A stretch of DNA of 31,649 nt from an uncultured Methanosarcinaceae archaeon. Lineage in GTDB: Archaea > Halobacteriota > Methanosarcinia > Methanosarcinales > Methanosarcinaceae. Below are positions 15,001-18,000 of the stretch, piece by piece. Made by a program: the position numbers. Within the stretch, counting starts at the first letter, position 1, and every line of letters starts with the position of its first letter. The DNA is taken from positions 1 to 31,649 of the forward strand of contig CAWHXP010000017.1 in assembly GCA_963833425.1 (NCBI GenBank), given 5' to 3'.

Positions 15001-18000
15001 TATAAAGTGATCTCACTTTAGATAGCTGGCCAATTGATAAATTGAGAGCTCCCTCAAGGTTAGCTCCCTCAAGGTTAGCACCTTCAAGGTTAGCTCCTTG
15101 AAGATTAGCTCCTTGAAGATTAGCTCCTTGAAGATAAGCTCCTGTAAGGCGAGATTCTACAAGATTAGTTCTATAAAGATTAGCTTTTTCAAGATTTGCC
15201 TCTATAAGATTAGCCCCTTCAAGGTTAACTCCTTGGAGATTAGCTTTTTTAAGGTTAGCCATAAAAAGGTTAGCTTTTACAAGTTTAATCCCCACAAAGT
15301 TAGCTCTTTCAAGGTTAATTCTTTTAAGATTAGCCCCAAAAAGGTTAGTTTTTCCAAGATCAATCATACAATAACCTCTTTTTTACCACGAAATACCTAC
15401 TTTATTGGCTTTTTTTATCAACAGTGAACCAAATCAACGATAATTTAAGCGTAACCCAGTAAACAGTACACTAGATGTCGCTGGAAAATTTCTAAGCTAT
15501 GGATGGACACAATCTAAACTAAAATACCGGTAGCAAAAAGCACATTAAAAGGATCAGAAAAAATAACGAAGAGTTATATTCTTTTTATTGTAAACCCAAA
15601 TACCGTTGCTCCGAAAATATATCTCTTAAGTATAAATGTATTCTAGGCAATTATTGACTTAGTCTTTGCATCTGTAACTGATTTTCTTTTATCTGTTCGC
15701 TTTAAACTACAATGTACAATTACCCCTTGTTTATTTTAAATTAATTATACAAAAAATAGTTTCTGAATAAAACTTACTTCCCCATAAAATATTTTAAAAT
15801 CTAACAACAATTTAATATTAATTAAGTTTTTATTATATTAGGAGATTTTAGTCGTGCCCCATTAGCTGGTTGATATTTTCACCTTAGAATGCACTTTGAT
15901 TCAAATGCGCTAGTTTTTGAGCTTACCTGCATGCAGAGAATCGAAAACCACACTGCGTAGAAAATGAGATGTAGAGAGCAAGTATGGGTTCCGTTGCAAA
16001 AAATCTGGCTATTTTACAAAACCAGTGAAAAACATCACAAATGGGATATTTATATGTCATATACATGTCAATAATGATACAAAAAGCAATAGTGATAGCC
16101 TAAAAAGGCAGTAAAATTATTTTTGCAACGGAACCCAAGTATGTGACTTTTCTGGAGAAACATCAATTAATTATTAGTAGACCACTCATTTAAGCGGTTT
16201 ATAAATAACTTGTTGAAATGAGAAATTTACCGAAATACTCTTTAAAGTAAATATTTTTGTTTTTTATAGGACTTACGCATTTGAAGTATTAAATCAGGTA
16301 CAATCACCATTATAATTTAAACTTTAACTATAACTATTTAGCCTGAGTAAAACAATACTAATGACCATCTTTACTAGGATTTACTAAGCAAATCTCTATG
16401 GACTTATTTTTTATGACTGTAGGTTATTGATGGTGTTTTTTATTTTTCCGTTAGCTAGTAAGCAGAAGTATCGATTTCATCAAAATAGATGCCCTCCAAC
16501 TGATTTTTAGTAAGCTGAATAATTACCTTTAATTTTAGACATTTGTAAGTATAATGATATTTATTTCTCGGTTCAATCGCATATAGTACTAATGAAGTTT
16601 CATAACAAGTTATTTATGGACAGGTGTGGGATTCCATTCAAATGACTCAGGCAAGAAGGCCCCTTTTGCTCATTATCCTCGATGGATGGGGATACAGGGG
16701 AGACGAAGAAGGAAATGCTGTCCTGGAAGCCAGAACCCCAAATCTTGACTTTCTGATGAGGGAATATCCCTGGTGTTTTTTAGAAGCGTCTGGAGAGGCT
16801 GTTGGTCTCCCTGAAGGTCAGATGGGAAACTCTGAAGCGGGGCATCTAAATATAGGAGCAGGGAGGATAGTGTACCAAGACCTTACCCGAATAAACTTTT
16901 CTATCAGAAGTGGAGATTTTTTCAAAAACCCAGTTTTTCTAAATGCAATTTCAAATGTAAAGGTCAACGACTCAAACCTGCACCTCATGGGGCTTGCCTC
17001 CTACGGAGGTGTACATAGCTATATGACTCACCTTTATGCGCTTATAAAACTTGCACATGAGAAAGGACTAAAAAAAATATATATACACTCTTTTTTGGAT
17101 GGAAGGGACGTACCCCCTAAAACTGCTCTTGAAGACATAAAAGAACTAGATGCATTTTGTAGGGAAAATGGGGATGCTAAAATCGCAACGGTCTCAGGAC
17201 GCTACTACGCAATGGACAGAGATAAGCGTTGGGATAGGACAAAACTTGCCTTTGAAACTATAACTAAGGGAGTTGCCACTTATACAGCCCCGGATGCAGA
17301 GACTGCAGTTTCTGAAGCCTATGGCAGGGGAGAGACTGATGAGTTTGTAAAACCGACTATAATCATTGATTCAGAAGGAAATCCAGAAACAATCATAAAA
17401 GATAATGATTCTGTAATCTTCTTCAATTTCAGGTCAGATAGAGCACGGCAGCTTACCTGGTCTTTTGTAAAAAAAGATTTTGAAGGCTTCGCGAGGGAAA
17501 AACGTCCGAATGTTTACTATGTCTGTATGGTCCAATATGATGAAACCCTGGATTTGCCAATTGCTTTCCCTCAAGAAAAGCTGGTAAAGGTGCTTGGAAA
17601 AGTACTTAGTGAGCAGGGACTTATCCAGCTCCGAATTGCTGAAACCGAGAAATATGCACATGTAACTTATTTCCTGAACGGTGGACAGGAAAAATGTTAT
17701 GCAGGAGAAGATCGTTGCCTGATCCCTTCTCCGAAGATTGCTACCTATGATCTCAAACCCGAAATGAGCGCATATGAAGTTACGGATGAGGTTATCAAGC
17801 GAATTCGGTTAGGAAAGTATGATGTCATTGTCCTTAATTTCGCAAACATGGATATGGTTGGACACTCCGGAATTTTTGAAGCTGCAGTAAAGGCAGTAGA
17901 AGCCGTGGATAACTGCATAGGTAGGATTGTAGCGGTTCTGAAAGAAACAGGAGGAATAGCACTCATAACTGCAGATCACGGAAATGCTGAACAGATGATA

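Follow-up and report, generated by a model that had tools for sequence, protein, structure and literature searches.

Why does one AT-rich, non-coding cassette recur between genes all over the genome of an uncultured Methanosarcinaceae archaeon? The question arises from a window of 31,649 nucleotides (the whole stretch of DNA that was analysed, from contig CAWHXP010000017.1), in which one copy lies upstream of a gene for a pentapeptide-repeat protein. An initial annotation read the cassette as a mobile promoter or leader module that puts a large, lineage-specific set of unrelated genes under one control, and neither as an RNA gene nor as an IS end. We consider it likely that the cassette is a long conserved archaeal promoter, which normally drives a multi-copy structured RNA and which has been copied before about 100 other genes in one peat-dwelling group.

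An oriented intergenic repeat that ends at a TATA box

The cassette is present where it had been annotated, on the minus strand (Table 1), and it is a genuine multi-copy repeat. Blastn of positions 15658-15873 against the genome gave 146 matches at E<=1e-3, and a profile built from 96 long copies gave 163 matches, which merge into 147 loci. Two of the 163 copies lie inside a gene. On the coding-potential gene map that we made for this assembly, which carries frameshift errors, the gene on the 3' side is co-oriented in 128/163 copies, compared with 2655 of 5000 random intergenic points (53%); on a cruder map (ORFs of at least 70 aa) a co-oriented downstream gene was found in only 102/163. No orientation bias is seen for the gene on the 5' side (75 vs 86). 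Thus, both the intergenic position and the orientation toward the next gene are confirmed. Thirty-five of the 163 copies face no called gene, and the next gene lies at widely varying distances (31-4292 nt, median about 270). Copies separated by less than 400 nt form 11 divergent, 1 convergent and 18 tandem pairs. Mean pairwise identity is 66% over the 113-nt module (105 copies, gap columns counted) and not about 80%, as had been stated.

Alignments between copies showed that the 5' boundary of the cassette is diffuse and that the 3' boundary is sharp and coincides with the TATA box. Boundaries of similarity peak at -140 to -121 and at -30 to -21 relative to the anchor, the latter being the end of the TATA block, and similarity stops at most 10 nt from the TATA end in 2536 of 4796 pairwise alignments (124 copies), in which its 5' end is commonest 130-140 nt upstream of the anchor. 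The terminal 18-mer contains a TTTAAAATA box with an A/T-rich block before it, which matches the layout of an AT-rich TATA box (about 8 nt) flanked upstream by a BRE-like element; the column identity of the 18-mer is at least 90% among 45 cross-species copies. The roughly 90 nt upstream of it hold two further TATA-like, AT-rich blocks; the palindromic one, which had been annotated as the second box, starts about 58 nt before the main TATA does. Column conservation in the predicted initiator region is 50-70%. As the initial annotation had found, the cassette itself has no RNA fold signal: RNAalifold returned an empty structure (0.0) on both strands for the 45 cross-species copies, the single-sequence z-score was 0.19, and Rfam 15 matched neither the cassette nor its leader at E<=10 (positions 15300-16300).

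Table 1. Coordinates of the cassette copies and neighbouring features in the window
Feature	Position	Strand	Remarks
Promoter cassette, flagged copy (predicted promoter)	15856..15731	minus	Common module of ~110-125 nt ending at the TATA box; profile match 15695-15856
Extended BRE/TATA block, 18-mer	15748..15731	minus	Sequence reading and cross-species column identity
Upstream palindromic TATA-like box	15783..15801	minus	80-90% conserved genus-wide
Predicted initiator/transcription start region	15707..15721	minus	Inferred from geometry; motif semi-conserved in most copies
Leader homologous to the genus-wide RNA, decayed	15728..15548	minus	nhmmer match 15728..15554, E=1.1e-23
Pentapeptide-repeat protein gene, target of the flagged copy	14870..15367	minus	Pfam PF00805, E=1.5e-31
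Second cassette copy	5096..5248	minus	Upstream of a GT4 glycosyltransferase gene (3689-4858, minus)
Partial cassette copy	6186..6308	minus	Profile columns 3-134; without the TATA part
Fourth cassette copy	25388..25549	minus	Next co-oriented gene DUF1269 (23962-24399), ~1 kb away
5.8-kb segment with the flagged copy	10525..16339		Missing from two sister genomes
MITE, 150 bp, unrelated to the cassette	15987..16136		Inverted ends ~16 nt, 7-bp target duplication

This anatomy resembles that of promoters mapped in the same family. Differential RNA-seq of Methanolobus psychrophilus (PMC5378194) places the BRE/TATA about 19-22 nt from the start site and describes long 5' leaders as common in Methanosarcinaceae. 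In the cassette, too, an element adjoins the AT-rich TATA block on its upstream side, and a start is predicted about 20 nt downstream; this agreement in geometry supports the promoter reading. The cassette differs from an archaeal core promoter in that about 110 nt are conserved instead of roughly 15 nt, in that its 18-nt block is near-invariant genus-wide and occurs in many copies per genome, in its two TATA-like blocks upstream, and in that its start site is a predicted one. Archaeal promoters do not usually show conservation over 90 nt upstream of the TATA box.

Transcript evidence comes entirely from metatranscriptome contigs, by which true starts cannot be shown, and it gives weak backing to the promoter reading; stretches of the window without contig cover were given no weight. 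At the flagged copy, two libraries of one study yielded contigs whose ends, at 15677 and 15691, lie 23-37 nt past the predicted start and are followed by Illumina adapter sequence. One of these adapter-ended contigs continues into the gene, and an RNA contig spans 14606-15677. At the second copy, a contig of another study lies in sense orientation and starts at about 5086-5094, just downstream of the cassette and about 15 nt past the predicted start. Contigs in three libraries begin downstream of the TATA box. A further one, the random-primed RNA library X13, has contigs across the cassette core (loose ends at 15731, 15764 and 15772; record 15289-15760). These could reflect DNA contamination, transcripts that read through from further upstream, or genuine transcription of the cassette.

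The cassette might itself be transcribed and act as RNA, as the 5' part of a leader or small RNA that starts from the upstream TATA-like palindrome or from a promoter further upstream. The presence of this palindrome and the X13 contigs speak for such a role, but we regard it as unlikely. X13 may contain DNA, the contigs in the three other libraries start downstream of the TATA box, and the cassette has no consensus structure on either strand. Moreover, the copies cease to resemble one another exactly where the TATA ends, which fits selection at the DNA level and not the boundary of an RNA domain.

A structured RNA downstream of the cassette across Methanosarcina

An RNA of about 200 nt with a three-way junction lies directly downstream of the cassette in 46 of 47 RNA copies (30 loci, 30 genomes). 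Cassette and RNA share a strand and are separated by about 40-75 nt, and several loci are tandem arrays of such units. The statement that the cassette is not an RNA gene therefore misses that it is the upstream half of what we read as a promoter-plus-RNA unit. The RNA is structured, and its fold is backed by covariation. The fold has four helices with 21 pairs, and 92% of the cells are paired, compared with 38-51% when the partners are slid by 1-3 columns. Both partners have changed in ten of the 21 pairs. For covariation the fold scores 0.382, whereas no slid control exceeds 0.152, and none of 500 shuffles reached the observed score. Since two main clades supplied the RNA sequences, some of the changes are shared events.

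A model of the RNA gave 563 matches in 58 of the 59 genus genomes, matched both genomes of one sister genus, and had no match in 109 searched genomes from 20 other genera of the order. Rfam 15 gave no match at E<=1 in nine cross-species loci (22 kb in total). Keyword searches of the literature on Methanosarcina sRNAs, UTR motifs and structured RNAs turned up no description of the element, and a full-text search with three short motifs of it found no paper. Intergenic RNA genes of about 200 nt that are specific to Methanosarcina recall multi-copy sRNA families with conserved promoters. For Methanosarcina mazei, 242 sRNA candidates have been reported (Jager et al. 2009, as cited in PMC4152357 and PMC5378194). 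The RNA differs from such families in having no Rfam match. A small conserved ORF was looked for in the RNA, and only mini-ORFs of 2-5 codons were found, which are not conserved. The genes 3' of the RNA in 30 genomes show no functional theme. A few orthologous placements recur, with the RNA ahead of a gene for an MtaA/MtbA-like methyltransferase or for a permease, which argues against a single-ligand riboswitch. In the flagged copy, the leader is homologous to this RNA and has decayed: the closing helix is largely lost, and the three-way-junction profile matches partly, at 15635..15568.

The cassette, too, is genus-wide. Its terminal 18-mer, with at most 1 mismatch, was present in 58 of the 59 genus genomes (controls, 0-2), and most genus genomes hold the module 5-20 times. 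A 37-mer core with at most 3 mismatches has 39 sites here, 14-43 in five sister genomes and 0-4 in each of the other 53 genus genomes (none in 37 of the 59), with 0 in all genomes for the reversed-pattern control. This agrees with the enrichment that had been reported for this genome and its sisters. Thus, the term lineage-specific does not apply to the module, nor to a gene set under it; what is clade-specific is the expansion alone, roughly ten-fold and seen in six related genomes, this one included.

Downstream genes and the spread of the cassette

The genes behind the cassette are not simply unrelated, as had been proposed. Of the 133 downstream 500-nt stretches, 82 resemble at least one other, several paralogue families are found among the genes, and many have leaders or signal peptides in common. 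They encode glycosyltransferase, pentapeptide, DUF1269, DUF308, isochorismatase, TPR, sulfatase and Hsp20-like proteins, and many proteins without a Pfam family. The pentapeptide gene behind the flagged copy belongs to a large paralogue family with many 70-78% identical relatives in sister genomes. The nearest neighbour of a cassette shares its downstream family in 23 of 46 copies, which indicates that many copies spread by ordinary gene duplication. Homologous non-coding sequence also stands upstream of non-homologous genes, which is the pattern of promoter reuse.

Four profile matches were found in the window, all on the minus strand (Table 1). The second copy is kept at the orthologous place in the sister genome G063, where the partial copy is also present. 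In G046 and G063, window position 10524 adjoins 16340 with flanks 94-95% identical, and one RNA contig holds the joint 10523>16340. The only presence/absence difference found at the window locus is a 5.8-kb multi-gene segment. The comparison of filled and empty sites was readable at the window locus only; at a second locus, a cassette-rich island (C13, 83-99 kb) compared with four sister genomes, the region is too rearranged and IS-ridden to be read. A MITE 130 nt from the flagged cassette provides an internal contrast that illustrates what mobility looks like in this genome; it has 43 matches, 37 of them at least 135 nt long.

The high copy number (147 loci), the clustering of copies in variable islands and the position of the flagged copy on a segment that two sister genomes lack are what one might expect of a mobile element, such as a MITE, the solo end of an unrecognised IS or another transposing promoter. 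We nevertheless judge such an origin quite improbable. Neither terminal inverted repeats (alignments of 71 and 124 copies) nor target duplications were seen in the copy alignments, both of which the neighbouring MITE possesses, and the ends are a TATA box on one side and a diffuse boundary on the other. This supports the earlier view that the cassette is not an IS end and goes against the view that it is mobile. The copies are old, as their mean identity shows, and half of those compared were duplicated together with their downstream family. Two copies in the window are stable at orthologous sites with flanks about 95% identical, and the indel that includes the flagged copy spans several genes, not the cassette alone. 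Genus-wide, the module is tied to one RNA gene family. Distant blastn found no match to the cassette on plasmids; the core pattern matches two IMG/VR contigs, neither of which matches the cassette or RNA profiles, and since they fail all three profiles we treat them as chance matches. Bacterial MITEs and promoter-bearing repeats, for example Correia elements, are dispersed, intergenic, multi-copy and able to supply promoter activity. The cassette differs from Correia-type MITEs in lacking inverted ends and target duplication and in having a single fixed orientation to genes.

The cassette could also be a DNA site of another function, such as recombination or binding of a nucleoid or chromatin protein, that looks like a promoter merely through its AT-richness, and its three conserved blocks, AT-rich and in part palindromic, extend over about 110 nt, a greater length than a core promoter requires; this is the least probable explanation, given the strong orientation toward the 3' gene, the fixed distance to the conserved RNA start, adjacent pairs that face outward, and RNA contigs that begin just downstream.

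Probable promoter reuse and its meaning for Methanosarcina

The promoter reading is the best supported one, on the grounds that the module ends at a TATA box, is oriented, forms outward-facing pairs, has RNA contig starts downstream and lacks an RNA fold. Hence the promoter part of the initial annotation stands, and mobility, a lineage-specific gene set and the exclusion of an RNA gene do not. In the promoter model, the near-invariant 18-nt BRE/TATA block would form the 3' end of the module, and transcription is predicted to begin about 20 nt past it, in the semi-conserved initiator. The upstream 90 nt or so probably bind a putative factor or extra TBP/TFB, and these upstream blocks probably set promoter strength or common regulation. 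The ancestral role across Methanosarcina would be to head the multi-copy three-way-junction RNA of about 200 nt. In the six-genome subclade that includes this genome, the module would now also stand before about 100 further transcription units, which comprise small secreted proteins and TPR, pentapeptide, DUF1269, DUF308, Hsp20, isochorismatase and sulfatase genes. We infer that it spread by being duplicated along with the genes behind it and by recombining at the TATA boundary, and not by transposition.

Putative mobile promoters, described by Matus-Garcia, Nijveen and van Passel, provide a close parallel in that homologous non-coding stretches lie upstream of non-homologous genes. According to the commentary PMC3575422, which does not contain the word "Methanosarcina", they are defined by an identity of at least 46/50 nt, and some such elements carry RNA motifs. 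The cassette differs from them in its larger scale (about 147 loci in one archaeal genome), in its lower mean identity (66%), and in having a traceable ancestral function, which we take to be that of promoter of one RNA family across the genus.

A more far-reaching interpretation, which we offer tentatively, is that the module is the docking platform of a dedicated Methanosarcina transcription device, either a specific activator or an extra TBP paralogue. It would serve a genus-wide regulon headed by the multi-copy three-way-junction RNA acting as a regulatory RNA. Promoter propagation would have enlarged this regulon about ten-fold in one peat/permafrost clade and placed some 100 small secreted, membrane and stress-type genes under one switch.

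Because Methanosarcina species serve as the genetic workhorses for methanogen biology, the claims about promoter and RNA are directly testable. If they are true, a conserved promoter module of about 110 nt would be out of the ordinary among archaeal regulatory elements and perhaps of use as an expression tool. The RNA, present in 58 of 59 genomes, often in tandem, and missing from Rfam, is a candidate for a major regulatory RNA. The ten-fold expansion in one environmental clade would then be a clear archaeal case in which control was rewired by promoter reuse, not by transposition.

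Extent and divergence of the repeat

The dispersed repeat described in the initial annotation is real. In the 4.07-Mb assembly (21 contigs) of the genome under study, G000, blastn with 15658-15873 gave 146 matches at E≤1e-3, and a profile from 96 long copies gave 163 matches, merging to 147 loci; 96 of the 163 carry the 18-mer with two or fewer mismatches. The window holds four copies. Across the 113-nt module, copies shared 66% identity on average in pairwise comparison (105 copies, gap columns counted), lower than the ~80% first given. The flagged cassette was located at its stated place, on the minus strand, together with the second, palindromic TATA-like box seen in the initial annotation.

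Cassette copies and neighbouring features in the window
Feature	Position	Strand	Remark
Copy 1	5096-5248	minus	
Copy 2	6186-6308	minus	
Copy 3	15695-15856	minus	flagged copy
Copy 4	25388-25549	minus	
AT-rich block	~15826..15808	minus	first element, read 5' to 3'
Palindromic TATA-like box	15801..15783	minus	seen in initial annotation
37-nt core	15767..15731	minus	3' end is the 18-nt block
18-nt BRE/TATA-like block	15748..15731	minus	terminal part of core
Semi-conserved motif	15721..15707	minus	expected start-site region, ~10 nt past 18-nt block
RNA homologue	15728..15548	minus	180 nt, E=1.1e-23
Pentapeptide-repeat gene	15367..14870	minus	next after RNA homologue
MITE, 150 bp	15987-16136		130 nt from cassette; inverted ends ~16 nt, 7-bp target duplication
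Segment, 5.8 kb	10525-16339		
P-type ATPase gene	1106-3569		split into two ORFs
ADP-PFK/GK gene	12493-13979		split into two ORFs

Boundaries were mapped on 124 copies, each taken together with 700-800 nt of flanking sequence, which gave 4796 pairwise alignments covering the core. In 2536 of them, the 3' limit of similarity fell within the 10-nt bin where the TATA block ends; the 5' limit, which was less sharp, peaked 130-140 nt upstream of the anchor. This indicates a common unit of ~110 nt that stops exactly at the TATA box. Neither inverted ends nor flanking duplications were seen in the aligned cassette copies, and the cassette itself has no fold. The nearby MITE has both inverted ends and a duplication, showing that genuine mobile repeats are recognisable in this assembly. 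It has 43 matches in G000, of which 37 reach 135 nt or more, and is present in many copies, 90-93% identical, in the sister genome G059. G059 also contains more than 40 copies (91-93% identity) of an 855-bp repeat found in G000 at 4865-5719 of locus L073 (contig C13, 83000-99000), probably an insertion sequence that expanded in G059.

High counts of the 37-mer (three or fewer mismatches) are limited to G000, with 39 sites, and five sister genomes, with 14-43. Each of the other 53 contains 0-4 sites; the 37-mer is absent from 37 of the 59 genomes in total, and the reversed pattern gave 0. The 18-mer (at most one mismatch) was found in 58 of the 59 genomes of the genus (controls 0-2), with 22-66 copies in the six expanded genomes and 0-20, mostly 2-12, in the remaining ones. 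It is the expansion in six genomes that is lineage-specific, not the element itself.

A structured RNA downstream of the cassette

At eleven loci of other genomes, the cassette is usually followed by ~200 nt of conserved sequence, the 3' half of which folds into a three-way junction made up of one closing helix plus a long and a short hairpin. RNAalifold on 18 sequences, eight from seven loci of other genomes and ten from G000, gave 21 pairs, ten with changes on both sides. Paired cells amounted to 92%, against 38-51% with partners slid by 1-3 columns; the covariation score was 0.382, against at most 0.152 after the same sliding, and 0 of 500 shuffles reached it. Part of this covariation reflects shared events because the sequences form two main clades. 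At E≤0.001, a covariance model of this alignment matched 563 times, in 58 of the 59 genus genomes (1-22 each; 16 in G000). It also matched both genomes of one sister genus, and none of the 109 genomes searched across 20 further genera of the order. In 46 of 47 RNA copies (30 loci listed), a same-strand cassette match precedes the junction domain by ~40-75 nt; the earlier reading, not an RNA gene, does not hold in that the cassette heads one. Several of these loci are tandem arrays of two to four cassette-RNA units, and one genome has six consecutively. Such tandem arrangement speaks for an RNA gene and against a riboswitch.

In several species there are arrays of three to six units spaced ~450-600 nt apart, as in genome G157 (C1, 352541-355121) and at loci L049, L058, L060 and L066. 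An MtaA/MtbA-like methyltransferase gene lies downstream of an array in two species; across species, genes downstream of the RNA share no common theme. After the closing helix of the family-0 RNA copies in G000, conservation extends ~100 nt beyond the U-tract and takes in a small hairpin that is palindromic, so the transcript or repeated unit of this clade may be longer than 200 nt. No Rfam family matched the window region or the cross-species loci, and a literature search, with the reported M. mazei sRNA set outside the comparison, found no printed description.

The RNA homologue of the window, which forms part of a long leader, has a decayed closing helix and matches the junction profile in its inner part only. 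The sister genomes G046 and G063 lack the entire 10525-16339 stretch, with flanks 94-95% identical, and copies 1 and 2 are kept at orthologous places in G063. The segment contains a frameshifted ADP-dependent kinase gene, the pentapeptide gene, the flagged cassette and the MITE, and one metatranscriptome contig carries its empty joint. The split P-type ATPase and ADP-PFK/GK genes fit assembly indel errors or pseudogenes.

Orientation and downstream genes

Because the assembly carries frameshift errors, as in these two split genes, we mapped genes anew, keeping ORFs according to their in-frame hexamer scores (3277 genes, 52% of the genome). The next gene on the 3' side was co-oriented at 128 of 163 copies, compared with 2655 of 5000 random intergenic points, which upholds the orientation originally proposed. 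With a cruder ORF map the figure was 102 of 163. There was no bias on the 5' side (75 vs 86), only 2 of the 163 copies lie inside a gene, and the distance to the gene has a median of ~270 nt (31-4292 nt). Neighbours closer than 400 nt to each other form 11 divergent pairs, one convergent pair and 18 tandem or partial duplications.

Among 126 full-core copies, the junction domain comes next in 18, the RNA 5' module in 13 and both in four. The rest head other sequences, many grouped into families: an RNA-like family (11 members), a 74-aa protein family (8 members) and two families of leaders, with 10 and 8 members, leading into small proteins with one common signal peptide, a cluster of 17 downstream ORFs. 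At ~17 cassettes (e.g., C8 364289 and C20 114572), small proteins share this signal peptide and the 5' leader while their mature parts are unrelated; promoter, leader and signal peptide appear to be duplicated or recombined jointly. Other genes headed by the cassette encode TPR, DUF1269, pentapeptide, Hsp20-like, isochorismatase, flavodoxin-like and response-regulator proteins. Three cassette-rich islands hold co-oriented genes including DUF308, isochorismatase, TPR, sulfatase and DUF1269, and 12 of 20 island proteins scanned have no Pfam family. The claim that these genes are unrelated is only partly right, since 82 of the 133 stretches downstream are similar to one or more of the others. Cassette identity was 73% within a downstream family vs 66% between families, and for 23 of 46 copies the nearest cassette belongs to the same family. 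This suggests that much of the spread is promoter-plus-gene duplication; the remainder implies exchange at the TATA boundary.

Transcripts and probable promoter function

G000 derives from peat and permafrost-type metagenomes. Transcript evidence is weak and consists of Logan contigs from four metatranscriptome runs; such contigs cannot prove starts. A 975-nt contig of run X16 spans 14606-15677, apart from 120 nt of pentapeptide repeats that it skips, before entering Illumina adapter; it continues unbroken into the pentapeptide gene. X17, which belongs to that study too, has a loose end at 15691 that likewise runs into adapter. These two ends fall 23-37 nt past the predicted start, on the strand that a minus-strand RNA would give. 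In X18, from another study, a sense contig at copy 1 begins at ~5086-5094, ~15 nt past the predicted start. Contigs of the random-primed run X13 include the cassette core, which speaks against a promoter, although DNA is possible in RNA libraries.

The simplest account is that the cassette is a long promoter module, because similarity ends at the TATA box, copies face outward toward the next gene, the distance to the conserved transcript start is fixed, the module has no fold, and contig ends are found just downstream of it. A report on Methanolobus psychrophilus places BRE/TATA elements ~19-22 nt from mapped start sites and describes long leaders as common (PMC5378194). The extra 90 conserved nt, which hold two further TATA-like boxes, may reflect binding of a factor. 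The nearest described phenomenon is promoter reuse, the "putative mobile promoters" (PMC3575422), from which the G000 cassette differs in scale, in its archaeal host and in that its origin can be traced to a promoter role for an RNA family found throughout the genus.
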